DNA of 64,000 bases from Alphaproteobacteria bacterium (GCA_016869375.1 VGEH01000001.1:18669-82668); one strand, 5' to 3'; numbered from the stretch's first letter, positions 34,951-57,062 are shown. Notes: generated by a model from the letters alone, not told the origin. Program-made: numbers and translations.

Positions 34951-34959
34951 GGCCGCGTC

Positions 34960-36786: not shown

Positions 36787-37149
36787 GTGATCCGGCTCCT
36801 GCTCCCCCTCGCGGCCCTCATCCAGGTCGCCGCAACCGCCCTTCCCGCCTCGGCGCAGATCGGGCCGGCGACGCATGGGGCGTGCTTCCTGGTGCGCAAC
36901 ATGGCGCCCTTCTCGCTCGCCGGACGCGTCGTCATGAAGTCGCGGCAGCGCTACACCTTCGTGCTGCAGAAGGGCCAGAGCCGGCGGGCCTGTCTGGAAG
37001 GCGAGATGCATCCGGGCGACAAGGTCGAGCTGGTGATCACGGTTTTCGCGATCCCGCTCTTCGTCTGCTACACGCAGGTCGACCAGCCGATCGAGCTCTA
37101 CGCCGCCCGCCAGGAAGAGGGCTACAAGTACTACGCCAACTGCCGCTAG
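36787..37149 (+). CDS. small secreted hypothetical protein (120 aa, 4 Cys)
   Basis: GTG start. Signal peptide MIRLLLPLAALIQVAATALPASA|QI. High GC3, native-looking. Divergent from the nuclease gene across an AT-rich spacer. Confidence 0.5.
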   Translation: MIRLLLPLAALIQVAATALPASAQIGPATHGACFLVRNMAPFSLAGRVVMKSRQRYTFVLQKGQSRRACLEGEMHPGDKVELVITVFAIPLFVCYTQVDQPIELYAARQEEGYKYYANCR

Positions 37150-38378
37150 CTGGCGCGCAGCACCTTCGGCGAGAGCAGCGCCAGCGCCGCGGTCAGGCCG
37201 CCGGCCGCTCCCACCCACATCGTCGCCGACATGCCAATGAATCCTGCGAGCGGCCCTGCGATCAGCGCACCCAGCGGCAGCGCCAGGCCCGTCGCCACCT
37301 GGAAGGTGGCATTGGCGCGGCCCAGCACCTCGAGCGGCAGCACGCGCTGGCGCAGGCTGATGGCGTGGATCAGGAAGATGCTGAGGAAGGCGTCGCCGAT
37401 GAGCTGATGCGCGACGAGGCTCGGGACCGCGAACGGGCCGGCGAGTTCCGAGAGCGGGATCAGCAGCGCCGCCGCATTGCCGATGGCAAGCGCCGAGATA
37501 AGCGTCGGGCCGAGGCCGAGACGCCCCGCCATCCTCTCCGCGACCAGCGCGCCACAGAATGAGCCGATGCCGCCGACGCTGATGACCAGCCCGATCACCA
37601 GCGGAAGAAGACCGAGCGTCTCGAGCGCCAGGATCATGTAGAGCGTGTGGAAGAAGCCACCGAACAGCATCATCAGTGTTTCGGCCGCGAGCAGCCGCGC
37701 GACAACAGGCTCGCCGAGACAGGCGCGGAAGCCGATGCCGATATCGGCGAGCACGCGGCTCGCCGCCCCGGGCGCGGCGGCCGGCGCCTCGACGGCGCGG
37801 ATGCGGCTCAGCATCAGCGCCGACCACAGATACGAAGCCGCGTCGACGATGACGGCGAGCGGTGCGGACATGACCTGGATCAGGATGCCGGCGAGCCCCG
37901 GTCCGACGCTCTCGGCGATCGAATCCGTCGCCTCGAGCTTGGCATTGCCCTCGACCAGATGCGGCTTGCCGACCAGCGCCGGCAGGTAGGTGTTGTCGGC
38001 GATGCGGAACAGCGCCGAGGCGGCGCCGACCGCAGCGGCGATGGCATAGAGCTGCGGCATCGAGAGATCGCCCGACCATGCCGCCAGCGGAATCGTGAGA
38101 ATGAGCGCGGCGCGGACGAGGTCGGCGGCGATCAGCAACGGCCGCTTCGCATGCCGGTCGACCGGCCCGCCGGCGACGAGCCCGACGATGACGCCGGGCA
38201 GCACGCCGAGCGCCGAGAGGATCGCGATCTCGCTCGGGCTCGCCTGGATCGTCAGGATCGCGATCATCGGCAGCGCCGTCCGCGTGACGCGGCTGCCCAT
38301 CGCGCTCAAGGACTGCGCGGCCCACAGCTTCAGGAAATCGGGATGGCGCCAAAGCCCGCCCGACGGCCACCACGGCAT
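37146..38378 (-). CDS. MFS transporter
   Basis: 12 TM segments, N-terminal MFS motif region (..GPVDRHAKRPLL..). Start at ATG 38378 (TTG 38438 is an alternative). Confidence 0.8.
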   Translation of the reverse strand: MPWWPSGGLWRHPDFLKLWAAQSLSAMGSRVTRTALPMIAILTIQASPSEIAILSALGVLPGVIVGLVAGGPVDRHAKRPLLIAADLVRAALILTIPLAAWSGDLSMPQLYAIAAAVGAASALFRIADNTYLPALVGKPHLVEGNAKLEATDSIAESVGPGLAGILIQVMSAPLAVIVDAASYLWSALMLSRIRAVEAPAAAPGAASRVLADIGIGFRACLGEPVVARLLAAETLMMLFGGFFHTLYMILALETLGLLPLVIGLVISVGGIGSFCGALVAERMAGRLGLGPTLISALAIGNAAALLIPLSELAGPFAVPSLVAHQLIGDAFLSIFLIHAISLRQRVLPLEVLGRANATFQVATGLALPLGALIAGPLAGFIGMSATMWVGAAGGLTAALALLSPKVLRAS

Positions 38379-38440
38379 CTGGCTCGATCCCCCGGATAAG
38401 ACGCCGTGCTGTCTCGCCGATTGCGGAGGTCGGCGCAAGC

Positions 38441-39364
38441 CTAGAGCGGCCGCGCCGCCGCCAGCTCGTTCTCGCGGGCGTCGAGCAACGCGCGGATCGG
38501 AAGCCCGTCGCGCGCTCCGGACATCGTGCAGGCGATCGCGCCGGCGACGCTCGCCCGGCGAAGCGATGACGGGAGGTCGCGACCCTCATCCAGGCTTGCC
38601 GCGAACACGCCCAGAAAAGCGTCTCCGGCGCCGACCGTGTCGAGCACCGTGACATCGAGCGCGCCGATGCGCCAGGCGGCCTCCGGCGAGATCGCAATCG
38701 CGCCGTCGGCGCCGAGCGTCACGACCACGGTGTTGCCGAAGCGCCGTGACAGCGCCCAGGCGGCAGGCTCCGGATCGCGCTCCGGCATCTGCATCTGCTT
38801 CGCCAGCGCCTCGGCCTCGTGCTCGTTCAGGACGAGGAATCCGACATCGGCGAAGAGGCTGGGAGGTGCCGGCATCGCCGGCGCGAAGTTGAAGAGCACG
38901 CGCGAGCCCGCCTTGCGCGCGCGCGCCGCCATGATCGCGTTCTCGCCCGGCGGCACCTCCATCTCGAGAACGACCGTCGTCCCGGGCCCCAGCGCCGCCT
39001 CCGGCACATCGGCGGCGCGCACGGCGTAGTTGGCTCCGAGCGCGCCGAGGATCTGATTCTCGCCCGCCGGGTCGATGGCGATGAAGGCGGCGCCCGTCGG
39101 CTCGCGCGAGCTGCCGACGCCGCCGACGTCGATCCCTTCCGCCGCAAGCCCTTCCCTGAGCACCTTGCCGAATGCGTCCTCGCCGATCCGGCCGAAGAAC
39201 TTCACCTTGGCGCCGGCCCGCGCCGCCGCGACGGCCTGGTTGGCGCCCTTGCCGCCGGGAAGGAAACGATAGGTCGGCGCCACCACCGTCTCGCCCGGCC
39301 CCGGCAGCCGGTCGACCGCGAGGATGAAGTCCGCGTTGATCGAGCCGAAGACGAGGACGGTCAT
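38441..39364 (-). CDS. rbsK: ribokinase (PfkB family)
   Basis: VLVFGSINADF, the GG motif PGGKGANQAVAAAR, and DTVGAGDAFLGVFAASL (anion hole / catalytic Asp). Confidence 0.85.
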   Translation of the reverse strand: MTVLVFGSINADFILAVDRLPGPGETVVAPTYRFLPGGKGANQAVAAARAGAKVKFFGRIGEDAFGKVLREGLAAEGIDVGGVGSSREPTGAAFIAIDPAGENQILGALGANYAVRAADVPEAALGPGTTVVLEMEVPPGENAIMAARARKAGSRVLFNFAPAMPAPPSLFADVGFLVLNEHEAEALAKQMQMPERDPEPAAWALSRRFGNTVVVTLGADGAIAISPEAAWRIGALDVTVLDTVGAGDAFLGVFAASLDEGRDLPSSLRRASVAGAIACTMSGARDGLPIRALLDARENELAAARPL

Positions 39365-39383
39365 GGGCACTGTCGTCGTCGTG

Positions 39384-39520
39384 CCCCCTCTCCCGGCGCA
39401 GCCGGGGGAGGGTTGGGGTGGGGGCCGAGCGCAGCGAGGATCAGCGGTTCAGCCATGACGCTACCCCTCGCTTCGCTCGGCCCCCACCCTGCCCTCCCCC
39501 GCGCTACGCACGGGAGAGGG
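39384..39520. repeat. REP-like nested palindromic intergenic element, copy 1
   Basis: ccccctctcccggcgcagccgggggagggttggggtgggggccgagcg ... cgctcggcccccaccctgccctcccccgcgctacgcacgggagaggg. The arms are mutual reverse complements and each arm is itself a hairpin. A second copy is at 56870..57001. Confidence 0.6.
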
Positions 39521-39552
39521 TTCCGAGGAGCGGGCATCGGCAACATCGAGGC

Positions 39553-40579
<1,027 letters not shown>

Positions 40580-40587
<8 letters not shown>

Positions 40588-41545
40588 GGGCGTAGAGCCA
40601 GCAGGAGGCTTGGGTGACGCCGGTGTCGAGGAGCTCCGGCCGTTCGACCCGGCAGCGGTCGAAGACATGCGGGCAGCGCGGGTTGAAGGCGCAGCCCGGC
40701 GGGATCTCGGTCAGGCGCGGCATCGAGCCTTCGATCTGGTCGAGCCGTTCCTTCTCGTCGTTGATCTTCGGGATGGAGCCCATCAGCCCGTGGCTGTAGG
40801 GATGCTTCGCTTCCTTGATCACCGAGCGCACCGGGCCGATCTCAGCAATGCGGCCGGCATACATGACGGCGACCCGGTCGGCGGTCTCGGCGATCACGCC
40901 CATGTCGTGGGTGATCAGCATGATCGCGGTGCCGTGGTCGCGGCAGAGGCGCTTGAGCAATGCGATGATCTGCGCCTGGATCGAGACGTCGAGTGCGGTG
41001 GTCGGCTCGTCGGCGATCACCAGCTTGGGATTGACGCAGAGAGCGAGCGCGATGACGACGCGCTGGCGCATGCCGCCCGAGAACTGGTGCGGGTAGTGGT
41101 CGATGCGGCGCTCGGCCGCCGGGATGCCGACCTCGTGCAGGAGCTCGAGCGCGCGCGTGCGCGCCTGGGTCGGCGACATGTCGGTATGGGTCTGGATCGT
41201 CTCGACCAGCTGGCGGCCGACCGAATAGAGCGGGTTCAGGCTGGTCAGCGGATCCTGGAACACGGCGCCGATCTGCTTGCCGCGGATCTTGCGCATCTCC
41301 TCGTAGGGGAGGTTGTCGATGCGGCGGCCCATGAGCCGGATCTCGCCGGCCGCGATGCGTCCGGGCGGCTCCAGCAACCCGATGATCGCGGTACCGGTCA
41401 GCGACTTGCCGGCGCCGGACTCGCCGACCACGCCCAGCACCTCGCCTTCGGCGATCTGGAGGGAGATGTCATCGACCGCGACGAGCGTGCCGCGGCGCGT
41501 CGGGAACTCGATGCGGAGGTGCTCGACCTCGAGAAGAGCAGCCAT
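40580..41545 (-). CDS. oligopeptide/dipeptide ABC transporter ATP-binding protein (OppD/DppD-like)
   Basis: [25 protein letters not shown] and PPGCAFNPRCP. Confidence 0.85.
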
Positions 41546-42477
41546 CAGCGGAGCTTCGGGTTGAGAGCATCGCGGAGCCAGTCACCGAGCAGGTTGACCG
41601 ACAGCACCAGGATGACGAGGAACAGGCCAGGGAAGATCGCCATCCACCACTCGCCGGAGAAAAGGAAGTTGTTGCCGATGCGGATCAGCGTGCCGAGCGA
41701 AGGCTCGGTCGGCGGCACGCCGACGCCGAGGAAGCTCAAGGTGGACTCCGTCAGGACGGCGATGCCGAGGCCCAGCGTGCCGATCACCAGCACCGGCCCC
41801 ATCACGTTCGGCAGCACGTGCCGGAACATGATCAGCATCGGGTGCAGCCCAATGACGCGCGCCGCCTGGACGTATTCCTTGTTCTTCTCGACCAGGGTCA
41901 GGCCGCGCACGGTGCGGGCGTACTGGATCCAGGTCGACAGCCCGATCGCCAGCACGATGACGTATACCGCGGCCTTGTCGTGGACGTCGCGCGGCAGGAT
42001 CCCGCGGGCGACGCCGTCGATCAGCAGCACGATCAGGATCGCCGGGAAGCTGAGCTTCACGTCGGCGACGCGCATGATCACCGAGTCGGTGACGCCGCCG
42101 ACATAGCCGGCGATGAGGCCGAGTGCGACGCCCATGGTCAGCGCGAGGGCGACCGAGGCGAAGCCGACCAGCAGCGACACGCGGGCGCCGAGAATGATGG
42201 TCGAGAACACGTCGCGGCCCTGATCGTCGGTGCCGAGGAGGTAGGTGAGCTTGCCGCCCTGCACCCAGGCCGGCGGCAGGAAGGCGTCCATCAGGTTGAG
42301 GGTCGCGACCTCGTAGGTGTTGTGCGGCACGATCCAGGGGGCGAAGGCCGCCGAAACCATGAACAGCATGGTCAGCGCGAAGGCGACCACCACGGTCGGC
42401 GAGCGTTTGAAGCTGTAATAGACGTCCGAGGCGAGGAAGCGCCGGACGAGGTCGGTGAAGTTGCGCCAGATCGCCAT
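41545..42477 (-). CDS. ABC transporter permease (DppC/OppC-like)
   Basis: 310 aa TM protein. Start overlaps the upstream permease-gene stop region. Confidence 0.85.
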   Translation of the reverse strand: MAIWRNFTDLVRRFLASDVYYSFKRSPTVVVAFALTMLFMVSAAFAPWIVPHNTYEVATLNLMDAFLPPAWVQGGKLTYLLGTDDQGRDVFSTIILGARVSLLVGFASVALALTMGVALGLIAGYVGGVTDSVIMRVADVKLSFPAILIVLLIDGVARGILPRDVHDKAAVYVIVLAIGLSTWIQYARTVRGLTLVEKNKEYVQAARVIGLHPMLIMFRHVLPNVMGPVLVIGTLGLGIAVLTESTLSFLGVGVPPTEPSLGTLIRIGNNFLFSGEWWMAIFPGLFLVILVLSVNLLGDWLRDALNPKLR

Positions 42478-42481
42478 GGGA

Positions 42482-43465
42482 TCAGTGAGCGCTCACCGAC
42501 CGCTCGACCCGGAGCCTCGGATCGACGGCGAAGTAGAGCAGGTCGACGACCAGGTTGATGAGGACGAAGAAGAGCGCGACCAGGACGAGGTAGCTGCTCA
42601 TCACGGGAACGTCGACGAACTGGATCGCCGTGATGAAGAGGAAGCCCATGCCCGGCCACTGGAACACCGTCTCGGTGATGATGGCGAAGGCGATCAGGCC
42701 GCCGATCTGAAGGCCGGCAATGGTGATCACCGGCACCAGCGTGTTCTTGAGCGCGTGGCCGAAATTGATCGCGCGGTTGGTCAGCCCCCGGGCGCGCGCG
42801 AACTTGATGTAGTCCGAGCGCAGCACTTCCAGCATCTCCGAGCGCACGAGCCGCATGATCAGCGTGGTCTGGAAGAGACCGAGCGTGATCGAGGGCAGGA
42901 TCAGCGCCTTGAGCCCGCTCGCGGTGAGGAAGCCGGTCGACCAGAATCCGAGCTGCACCGTCTGGCCGCGGCCGAAGGATGGAAGCCAACCCAGCAGCAC
43001 GGCGAAGATCAGGATCAGCAGGATGCCGATCAGGAAGGTCGGCAGCGACACGCCGATCAGGGACACCGTCAGCATGAAGCGGCTCATCGCGCCGTGCCGA
43101 TGCAGGCCGGTGTAGACGCCGGCGGGCACGCCGATGAAGAGCGCGAAGAGCGCGGCGACGAGGACGAGCTCCAGCGTCGCCGGCAGGCGCTCGGCGATGA
43201 TCTGGGCGACCGGCGTGCCGATACGGAACGAGAAGCCGAAATTGCCGGTCATCAGGTTCTTCAGGAACACCAGGAACTGTACGTAGAAGGGCCGGTCGAG
43301 GCCGAGCGTGCGACGGAGCGCTTCGCGCTCGGCGGCGCTCGCATCCTGCGCCACCATCTGGTTGATGGGGTCGCCCATGTACTGGAAGAGGGCGAAGGCG
43401 ACGAACGCCACCGCCGCCATCACCAGGATGGACTGGAGAGCACGACGAACAATGTAGGCGAACAT
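42482..43465 (-). CDS. ABC transporter permease (DppB/OppB-like)
   Basis: 327 aa, 6 TM segments, and the motif region YIKFARARGLTNRAINFGHALKN. Confidence 0.85.
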   Translation of the reverse strand: MFAYIVRRALQSILVMAAVAFVAFALFQYMGDPINQMVAQDASAAEREALRRTLGLDRPFYVQFLVFLKNLMTGNFGFSFRIGTPVAQIIAERLPATLELVLVAALFALFIGVPAGVYTGLHRHGAMSRFMLTVSLIGVSLPTFLIGILLILIFAVLLGWLPSFGRGQTVQLGFWSTGFLTASGLKALILPSITLGLFQTTLIMRLVRSEMLEVLRSDYIKFARARGLTNRAINFGHALKNTLVPVITIAGLQIGGLIAFAIITETVFQWPGMGFLFITAIQFVDVPVMSSYLVLVALFFVLINLVVDLLYFAVDPRLRVERSVSAH

Positions 43466-43544
43466 GATCTGACTCGAGGCGGGTAAGCGGCGAGGCCCGG
43501 ACCGATCGCTCGGCCCGGGCCTCGCGCTTACGCCATACCGATGG

Positions 43545-45119
43545 TTACTTCATCTTGATCTGGCGGAGGTCGACGTCGTTCGACGGGCGCGGCTTGACCG
43601 AGCCGTCGACCGTGTCGCGCACGCCCCAGGCCAGCGTCTGCTGGTGCAGCGGGATGTGGCCGTAGTCGTCCTTGTGGATCTTCTGCGCCTCGACCATCAG
43701 ATCGTTGCGCTTCTTCAGGTCCATCTCGGTCTCGGCCTGCTTGGTCAGCTGTTCGACCTTCGGGTTGGTGTACCGGCCGGAATTGAAGATGCCGGAATCC
43801 TTCTCCTTCAGGGTCACGATGTTGACCAGCATGTTGTGGGCATCGAAGGTGCCCGGGGTCCAGCCCAGCATGTAGAAGCTGGTGTTGTAGTTCTCCTTGA
43901 GCCCGATCTTGTCGAAATGCTTGGAGCGGGTCTGGGCGTTCAGCTTGATCTGGACGCCGATGCGGGTGAGCATCGGAACCACTGCCTGGCAGATCGCCTC
44001 GTCGTTGTCGTAGCGGTCGTTCGGGCAGTCGAGGGTCACCGGGAAGCCGTTCGGATAGCCCGCATCGGCCAGCAGCTTTTTCGCCTCGTCAGGATTGTAG
44101 GCCGGGCGCTTGTCGACTTCCTCGGAGAAGCCGGCGATGCCGGGGGCGACCATCGAGCCGGTCGGCCGCGAGCTGCCGCGCATGACGACGCGCTGGATCG
44201 ACTGGATGTCGATCGCCTTGTAGAAGGCCTCGCGCACCCGCTTGTCCTTGAACGGGTTCTTGCCCGTGCCCTTCATGTCGAGGAGCTCGCTCCGCTCCTG
44301 ATCGAAGCCGAAGAAGATGGTGCGGAGCTCGGCTCCCGTCAGCACCTTGGCGCCCGGGGTCGAGTTGATGCGCTGAACGTCCTGCGCCGGCACCGGGTAC
44401 ATCAGGTCGATCTCGCCCGAGAGCAGCGCCGCGACGCGGGTCGCGGCGTTGGCGATCGGGCGGAACTCGGCGCGGGTCAGGTTGTGGTCGGGCTTGCCCC
44501 ACCAGTCCTTGTTCGGCTCGACCACCGTGCGGTTGTCGGCGACGCGCTCGACCAGCTTGAAGGGGCCGGTGCCGTTGGCGTTGAAGTTGATGAAGGTCGG
44601 CGCCGAGGTGCCGCGCACCACCTGGGTGGTGTTGTTCTTCTCCGACCACACCTTCGACATGATGTAGAAGAGCGGCAGCTGCTGCGGCAGGATCGGATCC
44701 GGACCGCTGGTGACGAAGTCGATCGTCGACGGGTCGACGATCTTGACCTCCTTGACCGTCGCGACATAGCTCTTCATATCGGACTGGTCGGCCTTGTAGC
44801 GGCCGAGCGAGAAGACCACATCCGCAGCGGTGAGCGGCGTGCCGTCATGGAACTTCACGCCCTGGCGCAGCTTGAAGCGCCACACTTCCGGGCTCACCTG
44901 CGACCATTCGGTCGCCAAGCCCGGCGACAGGCTCAGGTCGAAGTTGCGATAGATCAACCCTTCGTACAGGTTGGTCTTCATCGCATTGGTCGGCCCCTCG
45001 TTGTTGATCGCGGGGTCGAGGCCGAGAAGATCGGCGTTGGTCGAATAGCGCAGTACCTTGGCATGGGCCGGAGCCGCAGCCATAGCGACGGCCAAGGCCG
45101 TCGCGATCACGTAACGCAT
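43545..45119 (-). CDS. ABC transporter substrate-binding protein, family 5 (paralogue 1)
   Basis: 524 aa with a signal peptide (MRYVIATALAVAMAAAPAHA). ~50% identical to the SBP at 48440..50014 by eye (LLGLDP..NN.G.TNAMK.NLYEGL ...). Confidence 0.85.
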   Translation of the reverse strand: MRYVIATALAVAMAAAPAHAKVLRYSTNADLLGLDPAINNEGPTNAMKTNLYEGLIYRNFDLSLSPGLATEWSQVSPEVWRFKLRQGVKFHDGTPLTAADVVFSLGRYKADQSDMKSYVATVKEVKIVDPSTIDFVTSGPDPILPQQLPLFYIMSKVWSEKNNTTQVVRGTSAPTFINFNANGTGPFKLVERVADNRTVVEPNKDWWGKPDHNLTRAEFRPIANAATRVAALLSGEIDLMYPVPAQDVQRINSTPGAKVLTGAELRTIFFGFDQERSELLDMKGTGKNPFKDKRVREAFYKAIDIQSIQRVVMRGSSRPTGSMVAPGIAGFSEEVDKRPAYNPDEAKKLLADAGYPNGFPVTLDCPNDRYDNDEAICQAVVPMLTRIGVQIKLNAQTRSKHFDKIGLKENYNTSFYMLGWTPGTFDAHNMLVNIVTLKEKDSGIFNSGRYTNPKVEQLTKQAETEMDLKKRNDLMVEAQKIHKDDYGHIPLHQQTLAWGVRDTVDGSVKPRPSNDVDLRQIKMK

Positions 45120-45276
45120 TAGGATTCACCTCCGATGAGCGGCCGGATACGGCCGCAATCCCTGTTTTCATTCCGCCGCCGGATTGGCCCGGGCGACAGC
45201 TGGTCCTAGTTTCGCCAGACGGACGCAGAAAATCAACCGGAAGCGCGGGGGGTACCCCACATCTTGCCGCTGGCGC

Positions 45277-45909
45277 TCACTTGGTGCCGTAGATGCGGTC
45301 GCCGGCGTCGCCAAGGCCGGGGACGATGTAGCCATGGTCGTTGAGGTGGCTGTCGATCGCGGCGGTGAAGACCGGAACGTCCGGATGCGCCTCGCCCATC
45401 GCCTGGACGCCCTCGGGTGCCGCCAGCAGGCAGACGAAGCGGAGATTGACGGCGCCGCGATCCTTGAGCCGCCCGACCGCGGCGATCGCCGAATGCCCGG
45501 TCGCCAGCATGGGGTCGACGACCACGACCGGCCGGTCGGCGATGTCATGCGGGACCTTGAAGTAGTACTCGACCGGCTGGAGCGTCTCGGGATCGCGGTA
45601 AAGGCCGATATGCCCGACGCGCGCCGAGGGAATCAGGTCGAGGATGCCGTCGAGGATGCCGTTGCCGGCACGCAGGATCGAGACGATGCAGATCTTCTTG
45701 CCCGCGATCGTCGGCGCATCCATCTCGGCGAGCGGCGTCTCGATCGGCCGCATGATCAGCGGCAGGTCGCGCGTCACCTCATAGGCCAGGAGCAGCGAGA
45801 TCTCGCGGAGCAGCTGGCGGAACTCCGAGGACGGCGTCTCCTTGCGGCGCATCAGCGTCAGCTTGTGCTGCACCAGCGGATGGCTGACGACAGTGACGGT
45901 GCTGGGCAT
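45277..45909 (-). CDS. upp: uracil phosphoribosyltransferase
   Basis: 210 aa with the [13 protein letters not shown] and [17 protein letters not shown] motifs. Confidence 0.9.
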
Positions 45910-45941
45910 TTCTCTCCCCCGAGCGGCTTTCGCCGAAGCTA

Positions 45942-47174
45942 TTAGAAGACCGTCCCGTCGCTGTCGAGCGTGAGCGGCGGGCCGCCGCCTGGACGCAGAC
46001 GCTGGGCGACGCGGCGGCCGGCGGTCCAGGTGCCGCCCTGCAGGACTTTGGCCAGCGGCAGCCGCTCAGCGTCGAGGCCGAGTCGCTGGCGCATGCCCTT
46101 CGCGACCTCGTCGAGGAGAGCGACGGTCAGCGCCCGCCATTCGACGATCGGCTCCTCGCCGGGCGTCATCACGCGCGACGCCACCGCGGGATCGCGCCAG
46201 GCGAGCACGCCGAGATCGAGGAAGAGGCCACCGTTGCGGTATTCCGGCAGGCCCGTCAGCGCATCGAGATCGGTGACCGTGAGGCCGAGCCATTCCAGCG
46301 GCTCGACCAGCGAGTAAGTGAGCCATTGCGAGAGCTTGTGGAAGGGCACGAGCGCGTCCGCCGCATCGGGGCTTTGCGCCGAACGATGGCGCCAGGTGTC
46401 GCCGAGCGGAAGGCCGGCGAGAGTGAGGCGTCCGGGCCAGACCAGGCCGAAACCGGCGAGCACGGCATCGAGGATGTCGGTCGCCTTGAGCCTGCCATCG
46501 ACGGCATGCCGCTCGAGATAGTCGACGAGATTGCCGATGCGCGCATCGCGGCCGAAGAGATCGGGCGCGGCGGCGATGGCGCGGCCGAGGCTGCGCATGA
46601 GGGCGGCGCGGCCGTCGAGACCGACGAGCGGGTTCGCCGCGCCGCACTGAAAGCCCGAGGCGAGCCGGCTCGCCTCGAAGCGGGCAAGGCCGGTGGCGTC
46701 GGCGCGGAGCGGCCGCGTCGCATCGCCGGAGAAGGCGCCTGACGCGAAGAGATCGAAGCTGGCGACCGCGAGCCCTTCGGAGCGCGTGAAGACATCCCCG
46801 CTCGCCGGCTCGCGATAGCGCCAGTCAGGCCCCGCCCCGGCATCGAGCAGCACGCTGGTCACGGCGAGGTCGAAGCCGATGCGGGCACGCTCGCGCGCGT
46901 CGACATCGACGGCGTCGACGAGGCCGGCCCAGCGGTCTCGGCCGCCGACGGAGAAATGGCGCCAGCGGCTGTGATAGGGAACGGCGCCGTCCGGATAGGC
47001 GCCCTTGGTCACCGCGACCACCTCGTCGATGACGGCGGGCAGACGCGCGCGATCGAGCACGAGATGCGGGAGATCGCCGGCATCCGCGTGCGCGAGAAGC
47101 TGATGCGCGCGCTCGCGCACCGCGCCCGCCGTCAGCAGCCAGCGCGCGGCCTCGGCTTCGCTGCGTCCGCTCAT
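45942..47174 (-). CDS. DUF1688 family protein (URC4-like)
   Basis: ATG 47174 overlaps the upstream gene's stop (ATGA). 410 aa ([27 protein letters not shown]...[10 protein letters not shown]...) whose overall architecture matches DUF1688 proteins. The upstream in-frame extension to 47687 overlaps the URC1-like gene and is rejected. Confidence 0.7.
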
Positions 47175-48427
47175 TCCTTCAGGGACCGGCCCTTGGCCTT
47201 GGCGAGCTCGGATGCGTCCGGCACCGCGGCGCTGTAGTAGCCGGCCGCCTTCTTCGCATCCATCTCGACGCTCGCATCGGCGGGGATCAGCGCCTCGGGG
47301 ATCGGCACGCGCTCGACCACCTCGATGCCGCTTCTGACCAGCGGCTCGTACTTCATGTCGCTCATCGAGCAGAAGCGGTCGATGCGCGTGACGCCGAGCC
47401 AGTGCAGCACGTCGGGCGCCAGCTCCTGGAAGCGCATGTCCTGCACGCCGGCGACGCATTCGGTGCGCTCGAAGTAGGTCGCGGCGCGGTCGCCGCCCTC
47501 CTGGCGCTTCCTCGCGTTGTAGACGAGGAACTTGGTGACCTCGCCCAACGCACGGCCTTCCTTCCTGTTGTAGACGACGATGCCGGCGCCGCCCTGCTGC
47601 GCCGTCTCGATGCAGACCTCGATGCCATGGGCGAGATAGGGCCGGCAGGTGCAGATGTCGGACCCGAAGACGTCGGAGCCGTTGCACTCGTCATGGATGC
47701 GGCAGGCGACCTTCTTCTCCGGATCGGTCAAGGCCGCGACCTCGCCGATGAGATAGATCGTGTGGCCGCCGATCGGCGGCAGGAAGACCTTCAGGTCCGA
47801 GCGCGTCACCAGCTCGGGAAACATGCCGCCGGTGTACTCGAACAGCGAGCGGCGGAGCTGGCTCTCGTTCACCTGGAAGCGCTCGGCGATGCCGGGGAGA
47901 TACCAGACCGGCTCGATCGCGATCTTGGTCACGCGCACATCGCCGCTCTTGAGCAGGACATCGCCGTCCGGCTTGAGGCGGCCGGCGCTCATCGCCTCAC
48001 GCAGCTCCGGCAGGTTGATGCGTGCCTTGGTCACCGCGATGGTCGGGCGGATGTCCCATCCGGCCTTGAGGCGATCGGCGAAGACCTCGGCGACCATGTG
48101 GCCCCAGGGGTCGAGCGAGACGATGCGCTTGGGATCGGCCCATTGCGGATGCGGCCCGATCGGCTCGGCCGGCGCGGTGTTGGTGAGATCCGGCACATGC
48201 ATCGAGCTCAGCCGGCCCGAGGCGATGGCGAGCGCGCGGTAGAGCGCGTAGGCGCCGGCATGGGCGCCGATCACGTTGCGGTGCTTCGGTTCCGTGGTGG
48301 TGGCGACGACCGGCCCGCGCGTCGCGGCATCGGCGGCACCCCATTTGATCGGCACCGGCTTGGTCCCGCTCCCGCCCGGGTGCGAGGTCAGGACAATGTG
48401 GCCGGGGGCTTTGTTCGGGCCGGGCAT
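47171..48427 (-). CDS. GTP cyclohydrolase II-family protein (URC1-like paralogue, not RibA)
   Basis: 418 aa. GCHII zinc/active-site pattern VACRIHDECNGSDVFGSDICTCRPYL, plus a ~200-aa N-terminal extension not found in RibA. Confidence 0.75.
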   Translation of the reverse strand: MPGPNKAPGHIVLTSHPGGSGTKPVPIKWGAADAATRGPVVATTTEPKHRNVIGAHAGAYALYRALAIASGRLSSMHVPDLTNTAPAEPIGPHPQWADPKRIVSLDPWGHMVAEVFADRLKAGWDIRPTIAVTKARINLPELREAMSAGRLKPDGDVLLKSGDVRVTKIAIEPVWYLPGIAERFQVNESQLRRSLFEYTGGMFPELVTRSDLKVFLPPIGGHTIYLIGEVAALTDPEKKVACRIHDECNGSDVFGSDICTCRPYLAHGIEVCIETAQQGGAGIVVYNRKEGRALGEVTKFLVYNARKRQEGGDRAATYFERTECVAGVQDMRFQELAPDVLHWLGVTRIDRFCSMSDMKYEPLVRSGIEVVERVPIPEALIPADASVEMDAKKAAGYYSAAVPDASELAKAKGRSLKE

Positions 48428-48439
48428 GCGCCGACTGTA

Positions 48440-50014
48440 CTACTTCAGCCGCACCCAGCGGAGATCGACGTCGTTCCAGGGACGCGGCTTGATGTCGGCG
48501 ACGGTCGGGCGCACGCCCCAGGCCAGCACCTGCTGGTGCAGCGGGATGTGGCCGACATCCTGCTGATGGATGGCGAGCGCCTGGCCAATCAAGTGGCGGC
48601 GCTGCACCGGGTCCTGCTCCTGGGCGGCCTTCTTCGCCAGGATGTCGATCTTGGTGTTCGAGTAGCGGCCGAAATTGGCGCCGCCGCCCGATCCCATCAC
48701 CGAGTTGAGCGCGGCGAGGCCGTCGAAGGTCGGCGGCGTCCATCCCAGGATGAAGAAGGAGGTGTTGTTGCCCCCCCGCGCGCTCGCCTTCTCGAAATAC
48801 TCCGCGCGCGGCTGGACGTTCAGCTTCACGGTGATGCGGATTCGCGCCAGCATCAGCGCGACGCGCCGGCAGATCGCCTCGTCATTGTCGTAGCGGTCAT
48901 TGGTGCAGTCGAGCGTCACCGGGAAGCCGTTGGCGTATCCGGCCTGGGCCAGCAGCGCCGAGGCGCCGTCGGGATCGTAGGCGGCAGGCTTGTCGAGCTC
49001 GCCGGAATAGCCCTCGATGCCGGGGGCGATCATCGAGCCGGTCGGGCGCGAGAGACCGCGCATCACGTCGGTGTGGAGGGCTTCAAGGTTGATCGCCTTT
49101 CGGAAGGCTTCGCGCACGCGGCGGTCCTTGAAAGGGTTGCGCCCCTTGCCCTTCAGGTCGAGCGACTCGTCGCGGAAGCTGTCGAAGCCCAAGAACACCG
49201 TGCGCAGGTCGGGGCCGGTGATGACGCGGATTCCGGCCTGCTCGAGGCGCTGCACCTCATGCGCATGGACCGGGTAGGCCATGTCGATCTCGCCGTAGAG
49301 CAGCGATTGCATCCGCGCCTCGGCGTTGGGGATCGGGCGGAAGACCGCGCGGGAGAGATTGTGCTCCGGCTTGCCCCACCAGCCGGGATAGGGCTCGACC
49401 GCGGTGTAGAGGCCGGGAATCCGGCGGACCAGCTTGAACGGTCCGGTGCCGTTGGCGTTGCCATTGGCGTATGTGGCGGCATTGGAGCCGCGCAGCACAT
49501 GCTCGGTGCCGTTCCCCTCGAGCCAGCGCTTGCACATGATGAGGAAGACCGGCAGGCCCTGGTCGAGCGTCGCATCCGGCTGCTTGGTGACGATGTCGAT
49601 CTCGTAATCGTCGTTCTTGCGCATCTCGCGGATCGACGCCACCGCCGAGCGATAGGCCGACTGGTCATGCCTGATGCGCGCGTATGAGGCGATCACGTCG
49701 TCGGCGGTGAAGGGCGTGCCGTCATGGAAGGTGACGCCGGCGCGGAGCTTGAAGCGCCAGACATCCGGCGCCGCCCGCACCCATTCGGTAGCGAGTCCGG
49801 CCTCGAGCGCCATGTCGTGGCGGCGGATGAGCAACCCCTCATAGAGGTTGCCCTTCATGGCATTGGTGATGCCGTCATTGTTGATGTAAGGGTCGAGCCC
49901 GAGCAGGTCGGCGCTGGCGGCATAGCGGAAGGTCGCCGCCTCCGCCGCCGGAAGCACCGTCAACAAGGCCCCCGTCAGGCCCAGAAGCGCCCAGCCCGCG
50001 ATCCTGGTCTTCAC
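48440..50014 (-). CDS. ABC transporter substrate-binding protein, family 5 (paralogue 2)
   Basis: 524 aa with a signal peptide (MKTRIAGWALLGLTGALLTVLPAAEA). Paralogue of 43545..45119. Confidence 0.85.
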   Translation of the reverse strand: MKTRIAGWALLGLTGALLTVLPAAEAATFRYAASADLLGLDPYINNDGITNAMKGNLYEGLLIRRHDMALEAGLATEWVRAAPDVWRFKLRAGVTFHDGTPFTADDVIASYARIRHDQSAYRSAVASIREMRKNDDYEIDIVTKQPDATLDQGLPVFLIMCKRWLEGNGTEHVLRGSNAATYANGNANGTGPFKLVRRIPGLYTAVEPYPGWWGKPEHNLSRAVFRPIPNAEARMQSLLYGEIDMAYPVHAHEVQRLEQAGIRVITGPDLRTVFLGFDSFRDESLDLKGKGRNPFKDRRVREAFRKAINLEALHTDVMRGLSRPTGSMIAPGIEGYSGELDKPAAYDPDGASALLAQAGYANGFPVTLDCTNDRYDNDEAICRRVALMLARIRITVKLNVQPRAEYFEKASARGGNNTSFFILGWTPPTFDGLAALNSVMGSGGGANFGRYSNTKIDILAKKAAQEQDPVQRRHLIGQALAIHQQDVGHIPLHQQVLAWGVRPTVADIKPRPWNDVDLRWVRLK

Positions 50015-50121
50015 GCGCGGATTGGTAACCTCAGGAAATGGTTAAGGTCAAATCCCTGGCGTTGCAGCCTTTCCATCGTCCAAGCTGTTAAGGCACCTGG
50101 ATACCTACCCCAAGAACCCCC

Positions 50122-51681
50122 ATGCCCGCCGTCCGCAACATCCTGTTCATCATGTGCGACCAGCTCCGGCACGACTATCTGTCGTGCACCGGGCACCCGT
50201 ATCTGGAGACCCCGCATATCGACGCGCTGGCGGGGCGCGGGGTGTTGTTCCGCAACGCCTTTTGCACCTCGGCGGTATGCGGGCCGTCGCGCATGTCCTT
50301 CTATACGGGGCGATATGCGCTGACCCATGGCGCGACCTGGAACGGCGTGCCGCTGCCGGTGGGCGAGGCGACGCTGGGCGACTATCTCCGGCCGCTCGGC
50401 CTCCGGGTCGCACTCGCCGGCAAGACGCATTTCGCCCCCGACATCGAAGGCATGAAGAGACTCGGGCTCGACCCCGCCTCCTCCGACACGGTGTTTCTGC
50501 GCGAGGGCGGCTTCGAGCCCTTCGACCGCCATGAGGGGCATGTGCGGCCGCCAGCGGATTCTCTCTACATGCGCTACCTCAAGGCCCGATATCCGGGCGA
50601 GGATCCGTGGTCGGAATACGTGGTCGGCGTCGAGGGGCCGGGCGGCGAGGTCGAGGATGGCTGGCTGATCCGAAACGCGCATCGGCCGGCGCGGGTGAAG
50701 GAAGCGGATTCCGAGACCGCCTACATGACCGATCGCGCCATGGCCTTCATCCGCGAGCAGGGCGACAAGCCCTGGTGCCTGCACCTCTCCTACATCAAGC
50801 CGCACTGGCCCTATCTCGCGCCCGCGCCCTATCACGCCCTTTACCCGCCGGAGACGCATCTGAAGCTGGCACGCCGGAAGCACGAGCTGAAGGACGCGCA
50901 TCCCGTCGTCGCCGCCTATCGCCGCACCGACGAGGGGCTGAGCTTCGAGCGCGAGGAGGTCGCGCGCAACGCGACGCAGGCGTACATGGGGTTGGTCAAG
51001 CAGATCGACGACCACATCGGCCGCCTCACCCAGTTCCTGGAAGAAAGCGGCCGGCTCGCCGACACCATGATCGTGTTCACCTCCGACCACGGCGATTTCC
51101 TCGGCGATCATTGGCTCGGCGAGAAGGAGCTGTTCTACGACCAGGCGGTCCGCATCCCGCTGATCGTCTACGACCCCGACCACGCCTCGACGGCGCGCAA
51201 GCGCCGCGTCGACGACCGCTTCGTCGAGGCGATCGACCTGCTGCCCACATTCATCGAGGCGCTGGGCGGCACCGTGCCGACGCAGACGATCGAGGGCACC
51301 TCCCTCCTCCATCACCTGCGCGGCGGCCCGGTGCAGGAGAAGGACGCGGTCTTCGCCGAGCTCGACTATGGCTTCCGCCGCGCGCGCAAGGTGCTCGGCC
51401 GCAGCCCGCAAGGCTGCCGCGGATTCATGGTGCGCACGGCACGCTGGAAATACGTCGAATGGCCCGGCTTCGCCCCGCAGCTCTTCGACCTGGAAAACGA
51501 CCCCGGCGAGTACCAGGACCTAGGCGGCGACGCCGGCAAGGCGCGCGTGCGCCGCGAGATGAAGGAACGCCTGTTCGACTGGATGACCTGCCGCAAGACC
51601 GGCCCGAACCAGGCCGACGAGAAGATCGAAGCCGGCACCGATACGCATCGCTCGCGGGGGATTCACATCGGGGTGTGGTGA
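50122..51681 (+). CDS. sulfatase-family hydrolase (cytoplasmic, Cys-type)
   Basis: 519 aa. MCDQLRHD and the C-X-P-S-R motif SAVCGPSRMSFYTGRY. No signal peptide. Confidence 0.85.
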   Translation: MPAVRNILFIMCDQLRHDYLSCTGHPYLETPHIDALAGRGVLFRNAFCTSAVCGPSRMSFYTGRYALTHGATWNGVPLPVGEATLGDYLRPLGLRVALAGKTHFAPDIEGMKRLGLDPASSDTVFLREGGFEPFDRHEGHVRPPADSLYMRYLKARYPGEDPWSEYVVGVEGPGGEVEDGWLIRNAHRPARVKEADSETAYMTDRAMAFIREQGDKPWCLHLSYIKPHWPYLAPAPYHALYPPETHLKLARRKHELKDAHPVVAAYRRTDEGLSFEREEVARNATQAYMGLVKQIDDHIGRLTQFLEESGRLADTMIVFTSDHGDFLGDHWLGEKELFYDQAVRIPLIVYDPDHASTARKRRVDDRFVEAIDLLPTFIEALGGTVPTQTIEGTSLLHHLRGGPVQEKDAVFAELDYGFRRARKVLGRSPQGCRGFMVRTARWKYVEWPGFAPQLFDLENDPGEYQDLGGDAGKARVRREMKERLFDWMTCRKTGPNQADEKIEAGTDTHRSRGIHIGVW

Positions 51682-53603: not shown

Positions 53604-55088
53604 CTACCACCCCTTCTCCTTCTCCAGCGGATAGATCGGCACGCGGCGGTGCTTGTAGGTGAAGGTGGTGAGGTCCGCCGTGGTGACGCCCGGCGTTCCC
53701 ATCCAGATCATCTCCTTGGCGATCGGCTCCATCGCCGGTCGTGGGGAGTGCACGCCCTTGGCGACGATGACCTTCTGGTCCTTGGGCTCGATGCCGAGGG
53801 CGCGGAACTGCTGCAGGCTGGAGGAGCCGGCGCCGTAGGTCGTCAGCACGATGGTCCAGCCGTCGTCGGTCGCGATCGCCGCGCTCGGCCCGTCGTTGAA
53901 GAAGCGGAAACCGCCATGGACGGGCCCGGTCTCCTCGTAGCGGCCATCGGTGAGCGCGGTGACCTTGCCCTTGATCGCGAAGGGCTTGCCGTGGCGCCCG
54001 TCGATCTTGCCGCCGACGGCGAGATCGATGCGGCCGCCGACACCGGCGGCCTGGCACGCCTTCACGCCTTCGGGATCGCAGAGCGCCTGCAGCACGCCGG
54101 GCACCTTGAGCCGGCGTGCGGCGTGCAGGACCAAGGTCGAGTCGGCCGGGCTGCCGCCGCCGACATTGTCGCCGACATCGAACAGCACCACCGGGTTCAC
54201 GTTCGCGGCCCGGGCGCGCATCAGCGCCTCGTCGACCGGCGTGCCGCCGGTGTTGAGCGCGGCGCGCATCGACCAGGCGGCGTCGGAGAGCGTCCTGGCG
54301 ATCTCGTTGGCGAGCGCCTGGTTGTTGTCGGTGACGGCGATGAAGGACATGCCCATCTCGGCGACGTCGGCATAGGGATAGCCTTCCACCACGCTGACCG
54401 AGAGCACGCCTGGGCGCCGGCGCTGCTCGTCGGCGAGGCGGATGAGGTCCGACATCGGCCTGTCGCTGGTGCCCTGGTTCAGGATGTTGACCAGCAGCGG
54501 CGGCGTCTCCAGCGCCGTCGTCGGCCTGATCTTGCCGCGCACCATGTCGAGCACGAGGCGCGCGCAGAGCTCGGCCTGCTCCTTGGTGTCGATATGCGGG
54601 TTGGTCTGGTAGACGGTGGTGATGTCCGCGTTCTCGATCATCTGGCGCGAGATGTTCGCGTGCATGTCGAGGGCGACGCCGATCGGGACCTTAGGCCCGA
54701 CCGTCTCGCGCACGCGGCGGATCAGCTCGCCATCCGCATCCGGCCAGGTCTCCGAGACCGCGGCGCCATGCTGGGGCAGCAGCACCGCGTCCCACGGCCC
54801 GTTGTCGCGGATGCCCGAGATGATGCGGTCCATGAAGTAGCGGATGGCCTCGTCGGTGATCGCCGCCATCGGCGTCAGCCTGGCGAAGAACAGCGGCACC
54901 AGCTCGACCTCGGGATCCGCATCGGCGACGGCGAAGAAGCCGGAGAGCGTCGCCTTCGACTCGGCGTATTCCTTGCGGAGCTGATCGCCTTCGAGGATGC
55001 CTGCCCGGCGGAACTTGTCCAGGCTGGCCGGGACCGTGGAGAAGGTGTTCGACTCGTGCATGAAGCCGGCGGTGGCGATGCGGATCAT
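53604..55088 (-). CDS. M81-family metallopeptidase (MlrC/microcystinase C-like)
   Basis: Start at ATG 55088 (MIRIATAGFMHESNTF..), typical of the M81/MlrC N-terminus. 494 aa. Confidence 0.85.
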   Translation of the reverse strand: MIRIATAGFMHESNTFSTVPASLDKFRRAGILEGDQLRKEYAESKATLSGFFAVADADPEVELVPLFFARLTPMAAITDEAIRYFMDRIISGIRDNGPWDAVLLPQHGAAVSETWPDADGELIRRVRETVGPKVPIGVALDMHANISRQMIENADITTVYQTNPHIDTKEQAELCARLVLDMVRGKIRPTTALETPPLLVNILNQGTSDRPMSDLIRLADEQRRRPGVLSVSVVEGYPYADVAEMGMSFIAVTDNNQALANEIARTLSDAAWSMRAALNTGGTPVDEALMRARAANVNPVVLFDVGDNVGGGSPADSTLVLHAARRLKVPGVLQALCDPEGVKACQAAGVGGRIDLAVGGKIDGRHGKPFAIKGKVTALTDGRYEETGPVHGGFRFFNDGPSAAIATDDGWTIVLTTYGAGSSSLQQFRALGIEPKDQKVIVAKGVHSPRPAMEPIAKEMIWMGTPGVTTADLTTFTYKHRRVPIYPLEKEKGW

Positions 55089-55253
55089 TCCAGAAACCCC
55101 GATTGCGCGTGCCGCAGATTGCCGCACGGCCGCCCCGGCCTCCTAGCGCTACGGTCTTCAGGCGAAACCCGGATTTCATCTCTCGCGACTGCGAGTTGCC
55201 GAGACGGCGCCGACGGCTAACCTAGGCGCATCCAGGATCAGAGGAGCCCATCC

Positions 55254-56831: not shown

Positions 56832-56869
56832 CAGGGCGCCGGCGTTAACCGAGAAGACGGCGTCGTATA

Positions 56870-57001: not shown

Positions 57002-57062
57002 AGCACAAGAGGATATCAACTGCTTCCTTGCATATATTTCTTGAGCAAAGGCCGATGAGCCG

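Follow-up and report, generated by a model that had tools for sequence, protein, structure and literature searches.

A bacterial URC-type pyrimidine catabolic cassette beside an Opp/Dpp-type importer operon in an alphaproteobacterial lineage

The window (the whole stretch of alphaproteobacterial DNA that was analysed, 64,000 nucleotides) contains three genes that are the bacterial counterpart of fungal URC1, URC4 and URC6, located between two paralogous binding protein genes (SBP2 and SBP1) of an ABC importer. The reading that accounts best for this locus, with a probability of roughly 0.55, is that a bacterial URC cassette was inserted, together with SBP2 and a sulfatase-family gene, before an older importer operon. 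The identification of the three genes, first proposed from the sequence alone, is borne out by their family scores. The accompanying proposal of a transporter-coupled URC pathway fares less evenly: the identity of the trio and its nature as a conserved cassette stand, whereas the importer and ribokinase belong to a separate module that also occurs without URC genes.

All orfs of 37146..50014 are present at the coordinates given here, as confirmed by an ORF check, and all lie on the minus strand, with very high GC3 (0.89-0.95). The gene order that had been claimed is real: SBP2, the URC1-like gene, the DUF1688 gene URC4, upp, SBP1, two permease genes, two ATPase genes, a hairpin, a ribokinase gene and an MFS transporter gene. 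By coordinates, SBP2 (48440..50014) is separated from URC1 (47171..48427) by 12 nucleotides, the stop codon of URC1 is overlapped by the start codon of URC4 (45942..47174) in an ATGA motif, and gaps of 32 and 157 nucleotides follow between URC4 and upp (45277..45909) and between upp and SBP1 (43545..45119). No consensus terminator was found in this same-strand gene run, no urease or urea carboxylase gene among the scanned genes of the window, and no nucleoside hydrolase or phosphorylase in the window.

The URC1-type protein, a predicted UTP cyclohydrolase, consists of a GTP_CH_N domain (PF12471, 291 bits) followed by a GCHII-like domain (GTP_cyclohydro2, PF00925, 58.8 bits), each exceeding its gathering cut-off, and scores 767 bits against NCBIfam PRK07198 (cut-off 403). 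Over residues 4-416 it matches a crystallised bacterial enzyme (PDB 7EJ3 and 7EEV, with "UTP cyclohydrolase" in the entry titles) at 629 bits and 68-69% identity. The two-domain architecture is common to both proteins along their full length and no sequence-level difference was detected, so the URC1-like protein is a straightforward orthologue. This bacterial UTP cyclohydrolase (7EEV, 7EJ3) was reportedly described by Zhang et al. in ACS Catal in 2021 (11:8895), and the statement that bacterial URC1 homologues are essentially uncharacterised is wrong for URC1. The choice of UMP as the substrate for ring opening is likewise outdated; the identity to the deposited UTP cyclohydrolase indicates UTP, rather than UMP, as the pathway intermediate. 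The UTP cyclohydrolase paper is cited as a reference for the URC pathway in PMC12507026.

It is very improbable that the URC1-like protein is instead the GTP cyclohydrolase II of riboflavin synthesis and that the locus has no connection with pyrimidines. NCBIfam and JGI do name it 'GTP cyclohydrolase II', and it shares with RibA the C-terminal fold, the three cysteines that bind zinc and a Tyr/Arg pair to which a part in pyrophosphate release is attributed: C248/C259/C261, Y303 and R332, invariant in 17 homologues, align with C54/C65/C67, Y105 and R128 of RibA. The first cysteine of the motif 'CRIHDEC', quoted from the sequence earlier, is not among the zinc cysteines in this alignment. However, RibA models give only 55-61 bits against cut-offs of 148-206 (PRK00393, 60.9 versus 148; TIGR00505, 55.5 versus 205.85), and the 28% identity to E. 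coli RibA is confined to the C-terminal 174 residues. The protein possesses an additional N-terminal domain of about 200 residues (190 of them GTP_CH_N), its architecture is near-identical to that of the deposited UTP cyclohydrolase, and its gene always occurs together with DUF1688 and upp, a neighbourhood unlike that of RibA and without rib genes. The missed RibA cut-offs, the GTP_CH_N domain and the linkage to DUF1688 and upp led to rejection of a RibA identity for 47171..48427, in keeping with the sequence-only reading.

The URC4 protein matches DUF1688 (PF07958, 486 bits) over its full length (profile positions 2-420 of 420) and has no other match in Pfam; NCBI names its homologues 'URC4/urg3 family protein'. 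It has an HhH-type two-lobe fold with the insertions specific to Qng1 (DUF2419), a queuosine-5′-monophosphate N-glycosylase that hydrolyses its nucleoside 5′-monophosphate by means of a K...D-Y motif and a C-terminal carboxylate (PMC9881137). By analogy, URC4 is predicted to be an N-glycosidase that releases urea from ribosylurea(-5′-phosphate). In yeast, ribosylurea is assigned to URC4, and urc4 mutants accumulate it (PMC7530994). The invariant residues K280...E311-Y312 and the C-terminal F410 of URC4 are candidates for the equivalents of Qng1 K199, D231-Y232 and Y323, matched by spacing and conservation. The relation is not found at the level of sequence: identity is 13-19%, URC4 is not a member of the DUF2419 sequence family, and a profile search of PDB sequences returned neither 7UGK nor 7U07. 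The two proteins also differ in the candidate catalytic residue (Glu311 in URC4, Asp in Qng1), in the leaving group, which would be urea for URC4 instead of a deazapurine, and in length, DUF1688 being about 80 residues longer.

The upp gene encodes a uracil phosphoribosyltransferase, the counterpart of URC6, that exceeds the equivalog cut-offs of TIGR01091 (278 versus 208 bits) and PRK00129 (293 versus 114) and matches PF14681 at 261 bits. A genome context survey for co-occurrence of URC1, URC4 and upp, which had been suggested as a check, revealed a conserved cassette: of the 71 bacterial loci that are complete (untruncated), 59 have the three genes in the order URC1→URC4→upp on a single strand, with representatives in Alpha-, Beta- and Gammaproteobacteria, cyanobacteria and Planctomycetota. 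Linkage of bacterial URC1, URC4 and UPRT genes is already reported in PMC3869809, citing Andersen 2008. The neighbours of the trio elsewhere agree with a role in pyrimidine metabolism, as had been proposed: cytosine deaminase in nine loci, RutR-like TetR regulators in nine and BMP/PnrA-type ABC transporter components in 9-12. SDR genes adjoin it in nine loci, and a TTT system adjoins it on a Pseudoroseomonas plasmid.

The same three families (extended GCHII paralogue, DUF1688 and UPRTase) make up URC1/URC4/URC6 of Lachancea kluyveri and urg1-urg2-urg3 of S. pombe, where the genes are also clustered and the urg1-3 cluster is induced by uracil (PMC2174524); the end products of the URC pathway are urea and 3-hydroxypropionate (PMC3869809, PMC7530994). 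In contrast to the fungal systems, the window locus lacks a urea amidolyase, a Zn-finger regulator and a uracil permease, its genes form a bacterial operon with translational coupling, and its neighbour is an Opp-type binding protein. It resembles the BMP/PnrA-flanked URC trios of, for example, Cupriavidus and Roseomonas in that an uptake system adjoins the cassette, but its transporter is of the SBP_bac_5 type, from another branch of the superfamily than Bmp, and neither cytosine deaminase nor a TetR regulator is present.

The importer has the composition of Opp/Dpp-type (PepT-family) systems: SBP_bac_5 binding proteins (SBP1, 281 bits; SBP2, 236 bits), an OppB/DppB-type permease (42482..43465, BPD_transp_1 and BPD_transp_1_N), an OppC/DppC-type permease (41545..42477, BPD_transp_1 and OppC_N), and ATPases of the OppD/DppD type (40580..41545) and OppF/DppF type (39553..40587), each with ABC_tran and oligo_HPY domains. 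The second ATPase was first called as 39553-40668; the ATG at 40587 is the likelier start because it gives an overlap of eight nucleotides with the first ATPase, as in the related locus L090. Loci without URC genes encode permeases 65-83% (OppB/DppB type) and 65-80% (OppC/DppC type) identical to those of the window, and homologues of SBP1, the importer's binding protein of ancestral type, head URC-less ABC operons in many phyla with 59-74% identity. In the URC-less locus L085, importer and ribokinase occur as a unit with 73-83% subunit identity; in Beta- and Deltaproteobacteria, the importer occurs without URC genes and without ribokinase, beside amidohydrolases. Homologous importers elsewhere adjoin peptidase-like amidohydrolases and omega-aminotransferases, not nucleoside genes. 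The importer and ribokinase are an older, widespread unit separate from the URC trio, and the usual substrate of the SBP1/permease/ATPase module is probably an amide or peptide-like compound.

The embedding of catabolic genes between two SBP genes of one importer had been considered unusual. Tandem SBP genes, 2-6 in number, are frequent in URC-less importer loci (six in Stella humosa); this is a habit of the SBP family, and several binding proteins per translocator are therefore not unusual in themselves. The window locus shares with these multi-SBP importers the two permeases, the two oligo_HPY ATPases and the SBP paralogues that precede a single translocator, and differs from them in having catabolic genes between two SBP genes.

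The predicted ribokinase (PfkB family, 38441..39370) scores 249 bits against TIGR02152, below the cut-off of 299.65, but its best 15 PDB matches are all ribokinases and the motifs GSINAD, GGKGANQ and GAGDAF are present; a ribokinase gene follows the same ABC genes in L085. The last gene, for an MFS_3/EntS-like transporter that resembles exporters (37146..38438, Pfam MFS_1 and MFS_3; 179 bits against TIGR00900, below cut-off), is also found in L090. Recycling of ribose from the URC pathway by the ribokinase, as once suggested, is not indicated by context, since ribokinase, MFS transporter, SBP1, permeases and ATPases form a separate, widespread module that occurs without URC genes.

Between the second ATPase and the ribokinase lies a palindromic insert (39402..39501, without strand) that had been described as a REP-like element. 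It is intergenic and forms a near-perfect hairpin of about 130 nucleotides (39371-39552 folds with dG -138 kcal/mol, z -11.3), as that description implies, but as for repeat copies, the 64 kb of the window contain only one further, partial match (56964-56983, three mismatches). Rfam gave only spurious miRNA-precursor matches for the hairpin. L085 and L005 do not have it, as the gap between ATPase and ribokinase is just 17-40 nucleotides there.

SBP2, a periplasmic binding protein with a signal peptide ending in ...AAEA/ATF, is a diverged paralogue of SBP1 (57% identity). No named equivalog cut-off was reached for the importer. The orthologues of SBP2 that were found (79-80% identity; L005, L090, L091 and L097) all immediately precede URC1, and the SBP2-URC1 gap is 2-17 nucleotides across the five loci; there is no SBP2-type protein among 120 database homologues or among 79 further metagenome relatives. 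Because SBP2-type proteins are seen only beside URC genes, a functional link between the two is plausible. SBP2 retains 196 of 213 conserved family positions and thus is not obviously re-tooled. The other 17 positions have mostly conservative changes; nine of the 17 lie within residues 371-411, a stretch surrounding the Arg whose aligned counterpart in DppA binds the ligand carboxylate. By alignment to 8Z1Y/8Z1Z, Arg355 of E. coli DppA (carboxylate) is retained in both SBPs (NDRYD), whereas at the position of Asp408 (peptide N-terminus) SBP2 has Pro and SBP1 has Gly, giving GWTPP and GWTPG in place of GWTGD.

Two spacers bear on how the genes may be transcribed. The spacer upstream of SBP2 contains a block, CGCCAGGGnTTTGACC, that is conserved across four genomes and includes a TTGACC box on the minus strand (50046..50051). 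This box may be the -35 element of the SBP2-URC unit; it is taken as a lead only, because a strict sigma-70 scan returned nothing in this region. In the upp-SBP1 spacer (45120..45276), a hairpin, GGGGTACCCC, and a box, CCGGTTGA(C/T), are conserved in the window, L005 and L090; the spacer bears no relation to the sequence that precedes the SBP gene in L085. Its overall fold is not significant (z -0.23) and Rfam has no match to it. These features suggest that the spacer parts two transcription units or holds an internal promoter for SBP1 onward; with a conserved hairpin and TTGAC box in this 157-nucleotide interval, the earlier claim of one operon throughout is unsupported.

On the far side of the first spacer, transcribed divergently, is the gene of a sulfatase-family esterase (50122..51681, plus strand; Pfam Sulfatase, 168 bits). 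It is PehA-like (308 bits against NCBIfam PehA, below the cut-off of 900) and predicted to be cytoplasmic; it lacks a signal peptide and carries the formylglycine motif CGPSR. The gene has the same position in L005, L090 and L091. The arrangement of divergent sulfatase-family gene, SBP2 and trio before the importer was found in one lineage only (five loci), so the SBP2-URC association counts as approximately one evolutionary event. In L085, the HSP70-like, aminotransferase and Sox genes directly adjoin a run of SBP, permease, permease, ATPase, ATPase and ribokinase genes; in L090, the sulfatase-family gene, SBP2 and the trio stand between these two flanks. Relatives with URC1 proteins 78-79% identical to that of the window have the bare trio. 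These comparisons point to a history in which, in one freshwater alphaproteobacterial lineage, a URC cassette would have been placed directly before an older Opp/Dpp-type importer-plus-ribokinase operon, possibly arriving together with SBP2 and the esterase gene, with SBP1, permeases, ATPases, ribokinase and MFS transporter as the pre-existing module.

The sequence-only reading took the whole stretch as one operon for uptake and degradation of a pyrimidine or nucleoside, in which both SBPs import, the trio degrades and the ribokinase recycles ribose. This is unlikely. The common strand, the missing consensus terminator and the retention of the order in L005 and L090, ribokinase and MFS transporter included, are in its favour, as are the uptake systems that often adjoin URC trios elsewhere (BMP-type ABC in about 12 loci, TTT in Pseudoroseomonas) and the assignment of a ribose-containing compound, ribosylurea, to yeast URC4. 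It is opposed by the importer-ribokinase unit of L085, by the importers beside amidohydrolases in Beta- and Deltaproteobacteria, which have neither URC genes nor ribokinase, by the separate promoter that the conserved spacer elements suggest from SBP1 on, and by the lack of a nucleoside hydrolase or phosphorylase in the window. Moreover, the expected product of a Qng1-like URC4 is ribose-5-phosphate, so that no ribokinase would be needed.

Pure juxtaposition, in which an autonomous trio landed within an expanded set of SBP genes of an importer for peptides or amides and SBP2, as a further paralogue with a peptide-like ligand, has nothing to do with pyrimidines, is also doubtful, though some observations suit it: tandem SBP paralogues are typical of the family, three Opp-type systems occur within 30 kb here and make a chance neighbourhood likelier, the closest relatives from beyond the lineage have a bare trio, and SBP2 departs from its family at few positions, mostly conservatively. 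Against it, every SBP2-type sequence lies directly upstream of URC1 with a short gap, SBP2 has been conserved within the lineage (79-80% identity), as have the URC genes, and its changes are concentrated around the Arg aligned with that of DppA.

If the preferred reading of an inserted URC cassette is correct, uracil would be converted to UMP by Upp, and UMP to UTP by housekeeping kinases encoded outside the locus. The URC1-type zinc enzyme would then open and hydrolyse the ring of UTP with loss of pyrophosphate; by analogy with RibA, this step would give a ribosylurea phosphate plus a C3 piece, the latter ending up as 3-hydroxypropionate. Finally, URC4, with its fold of a Qng1-like nucleotide N-glycosidase, would cleave the ribose-urea bond, and the urea could serve as a nitrogen source.

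SBP2 would almost certainly share a transcript with the URC genes. Having no translocator of its own, it most likely delivers its ligand to the permeases encoded next to it; this ligand may be a source of pyrimidine. The locus is a variant arrangement of a known system: the catabolic trio itself is known and ordinary, and the novelty is limited to its putative link with the importer.

All of the open reading frames proposed in the sequence-only reading exist where it placed them on the minus strand, with the junctions it described, and they have very high third-position G+C, as real genes do in this window of 67% G+C. By profile search, in order of transcription, they encode an SBP_bac_5 binding protein (SBP2, 48440-50014), a URC1-like protein with GTP_CH_N and GTP cyclohydrolase II-like domains (47171-48427), a full-length DUF1688 protein (URC4, 45942-47174), Upp (45277-45909), a second SBP_bac_5 protein (SBP1, 43545-45119) that is 57% identical to SBP2, two Opp/Dpp-type permeases, two ATPases with the oligo_HPY extension and, downstream of these, a ribokinase-like PfkB kinase and an MFS transporter. 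SBP2 and URC1 are separated by 12 nt, URC1 and URC4 overlap at ATGA, URC4 and upp are 32 nt apart, and 157 nt lie between upp and SBP1. Elsewhere the window carries ordinary chromosomal genes (purM, purN, pepA, lptFGD, gmk and others), and neither urease, urea carboxylase nor nucleoside hydrolase was found among the window genes scanned. The closest genome in a one-genome-per-species scan is a Lake Baikal MAG, and matching contigs are present in a freshwater metagenome and in an NCBI alphaproteobacterial MAG.

The URC1-like protein is no RibA: it fell short of the RibA cut-offs (55-61 bits versus 148-206), and the family model PRK07198 gave 767 bits. A search of solved structures matched it over its full length to PDB entries 7EJ3 and 7EEV (629 bits, 68-69% identity), both titled "UTP cyclohydrolase" and released in 2021 and 2022; the titles come from a PDB fold search with an AF2 model built from a shallow alignment, which was poor (pLDDT 61.5) and served only to retrieve them. 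For the URC pathway of bacterial pyrimidine degradation, PMC12507026 cites the corresponding paper (Zhang et al., ACS Catal 2021;11:8895). The description of bacterial URC1 homologues as essentially uncharacterised is outdated, since the enzyme has been both published and crystallised, and the intermediate of the pathway is UTP instead of UMP, judging from the identity to the deposited structures. In the URC1-like protein the zinc triad is kept, as are the two residues, Tyr and Arg, for pyrophosphate release in RibA, consistent with a nucleoside-triphosphate substrate. A theoretical study of the mechanism of UTP cyclohydrolase exists, and the exact products of its reaction are presumed by analogy with RibA. 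A tandem double URC1 is encoded on a 2.9 kb JGI contig (P0012, 725 aa); its first copy is truncated and has lost the zinc cysteines (RLHDESYDSDVFATAASSCRSC), and the complete copy after it is 59% identical to the protein of the window.

No structure of DUF1688/URC4 has been solved, and searches of the PDB with it as a single sequence and as a profile found no relative. A model of the protein from 29 homologues (pLDDT 92.4, pTM 0.91) confidently matched the fold of Qng1, a nucleotide N-glycosylase that cleaves the N-glycosidic bond of queuosine-5'-monophosphate by means of a lysine, an Asp-Tyr pair that follows it by 32 residues, and the carboxylate of its own C terminus, where the last residue is invariantly aromatic (PMC9881137). 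Candidate counterparts in the DUF1688 family are Lys280, Glu311-Tyr312-Arg313 (31 residues on) and the C-terminal Phe410, all of them invariant. From the fold and these residues we infer that URC4 is a nucleotide N-glycosidase that frees urea from ribosylurea, the 5'-phosphate being its probable substrate. In yeast, ribosylurea has likewise been assigned to URC4 (PMC7530994). No connection to Qng1 was found in the literature mentioning DUF1688 or URC4, as searched. For the one step of the pathway still unassigned, the fold match yields a concrete prediction that is cheap to test: hydrolysis of ribosylurea-5'-phosphate to urea and ribose-5-phosphate.

The genes for URC1, URC4 and upp (hereafter the trio) are nothing new in themselves, being widespread (more than 600 matches in a collection of one genome per species) and having a first enzyme that is already crystallised. 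Among the best 80 of these matches, 71 loci are untruncated, and 59 of them have the three genes in succession on one strand, the median gaps being 73 and 54 nt; two loci in which genes overlap were counted after manual correction. The loci belong to Alpha-, Beta- and Gammaproteobacteria (Legionella among them), cyanobacteria and Planctomycetota. Genes repeatedly seen beside the trio are those of cytosine deaminase (825 bits; 9 loci), RutR-like TetR regulators (9 loci), BMP/PnrA-type ABC transporters (9-12 loci) and SDR proteins (9 loci), which supports a pyrimidine-catabolic role of the trio; its position beside an uptake system is common. In a plasmid collection the trio is present and the importer absent. 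Linkage of URC genes in bacteria and fungi has been stated before (PMC3869809), and the urg1-urg3 cluster of Schizosaccharomyces pombe is induced by uracil (PMC2174524). The sequence-only interpretation is upheld in part: the locus does encode the bacterial URC pathway, but the pathway was already known, as were its clustering and its first enzyme. In five alphaproteobacterial loci (L014, L026, L051, L071 and L077), upp follows URC1 and an adjacent DUF1688 gene is absent, so that URC4 may be non-orthologously replaced or encoded elsewhere; in L051, an unrelated 279-aa ORF (3668-4507) lies between URC1 and upp. Twelve cyanobacterial loci, L020 among them, have in common a small, conserved TPR protein of about 156 aa, encoded divergently some 0.8 kb upstream of URC1.

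The importer is an older module, independent of the URC genes. Homologues of SBP1 with 59-74% identity occur in many Alpha-, Beta- and Deltaproteobacteria, in loci that have the same permeases and ATPases (65-83% identity) and no URC genes. In L085, one such locus, the ATPase genes lead on to the same ribokinase and then to an AtzE-like amidase; the ribokinase belongs to the importer and therefore not, as had been proposed, to the URC pathway. For the PfkB gene of the window the best matches and the motifs are those of ribokinase, and a nucleoside-kinase model scored only 44-51 bits, so it was rejected as a nucleoside kinase feeding UMP. In Oceanibaculum and a deltaproteobacterial contig the importer is accompanied by two amidohydrolases, one Xaa-Pro-dipeptidase-like and one of the M20 type, and an omega-aminotransferase frequently adjoins the importer. 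Several binding-protein genes per translocator are habitual in this family: tandem paralogous SBP_bac_5 genes ahead of one permease/ATPase set number five in locus L087 and six in Stella humosa (L094, AP019700.1, 475789-495372), so that two binding proteins on one importer are not unusual in themselves. The gap in the L087 array was considered as a site of catabolic genes like those of the window; it holds a broken, frameshifted fifth binding-protein gene instead. Upstream of the array in both of these loci is an omega-aminotransferase gene. A 416-aa HSP70/actin-fold protein (L085 8419-9669, L090 5319-6569, L091 2761-4011) also adjoins this importer family, consistently paired with omega-aminotransferase and heterotetrameric sarcosine-oxidase-like genes; the NCBIfam model PRK11678 "molecular chaperone" matches it with 265 bits, below cut-off.

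SBP2 precedes the trio in four further loci (L005, L090, L091 and L097), the URC1 proteins of which are 81-87% identical to that of the window; L005 and L090 extend far enough to display the whole layout, including a divergent sulfatase gene. The next relatives (URC1 78-79% identical) have a bare trio beside a tuf/ribosomal cluster. L085 and L090 are flanked alike: one flank has Sox genes and genes for an aminotransferase and an HSP70-like protein, the opposite one SBP1, permeases, ATPases and ribokinase, and the sulfatase, SBP2 and trio lie between these flanks only in L090. This is most simply read as the insertion of a block before an existing operon. The gene order on which the sequence-only reading based a single importer operon with embedded catabolic genes is real, but it is better read as a lineage-specific insertion that put SBP2 and the trio before an unrelated ABC-ribokinase operon. 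Transcription of SBP2 with the trio and of SBP1 onward as two units is at least as likely as transcription as one, because the upp-SBP1 spacer contains a conserved hairpin and a TTGAC box and a TTGACC box is kept upstream of SBP2. A sigma-70 consensus scan found no promoter, terminator-like sites were no more frequent than expected, and Rfam (E up to 1) identified no riboswitch or leader, the sole matches being hairpin artefacts. The "REP-like element" (39402-39501, in the spacer 39371-39552 between the second ATPase and ribokinase genes) is a GC-rich, almost perfect hairpin about 130 nt long (dG -138 kcal/mol, z -11.3) with a partial second copy at 56964-56983; it looks like a mobile palindromic insert, since the ATPase-ribokinase gap is short in L005 (40 nt) and L085 (17 nt) and long in L090 (182 nt).

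Whether SBP2 is tied to pyrimidine catabolism is less clear, and we put the chance of a real functional coupling at roughly one in three to two in five. Every SBP2-type sequence seen lies immediately ahead of URC1, at a distance of 2-17 nt: of 120 SBP1 homologues in the database, none resembled SBP2 more than SBP1, and a further 79 metagenome relatives included no protein of the SBP2 type. Within the lineage SBP2 is kept at 79-80% identity, as its neighbours are, and nine of its 17 group-specific substitutions fall in residues 371-411, around the Arg aligned to the one with which DppA binds the carboxylate; both SBP1 and SBP2 lack the Asp with which DppA anchors the peptide amino terminus. Against a coupling, however, every case comes from one lineage, 196 of the 213 family-conserved columns are kept in SBP2, the other contexts of the family point to amide- or peptide-like substrates, and Opp-type systems are dense in the window, with three separate Opp/Dpp-type ABC systems (30618-35000, 39553-50014 and 55254-60595) within 30 kb. 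An MlrC-like M81 peptidase gene (53604-55127) is transcribed divergently from the third of these, and the ORF at 30618-32966 in the first encodes 782 aa with an SBP_bac_5 domain from residue 326 only, possibly owing to a wrong start or an N-terminal extension.

Divergent from SBP2 is a sulfatase-family gene (50122-51681), best matched by the phosphonate-monoester/sulfate-ester hydrolase PehA, with an intact CGPSR formylglycine motif and no signal peptide; it is kept in this orientation in all three relatives with contigs extending upstream of SBP2 (L005, L090 and L091). It is conceivable, though unlikely, that SBP2 is a cluster-C (Opp/Dpp-family) protein re-specified for a pyrimidine-derived nitrogen source, which would borrow the translocator of the neighbouring peptide/amide importer. 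Candidate ligands would then be uracil, uridine and ribosylurea, or else a sulfate or phosphate ester containing uridine, which the adjacent cytoplasmic PehA-like esterase would unmask. On this unlikely reading, sulfatase, SBP2, URC1, URC4 and upp would form a self-contained "plug-in" uptake-degradation cassette, of a type as yet undescribed for either the URC pathway or this binding-protein family.

The interest of the locus is kept by the testable prediction for URC4 and by the question of the SBP2 ligand. If SBP2 only binds peptides like its paralogues, the arrangement amounts to an accident of gene order in this one lineage. If SBP2 binds a pyrimidine-derived ligand, the ligand range of Opp/Dpp-type binding proteins would be widened, and a catabolic cassette would be able to recruit an existing translocator by the addition of a binding protein alone.
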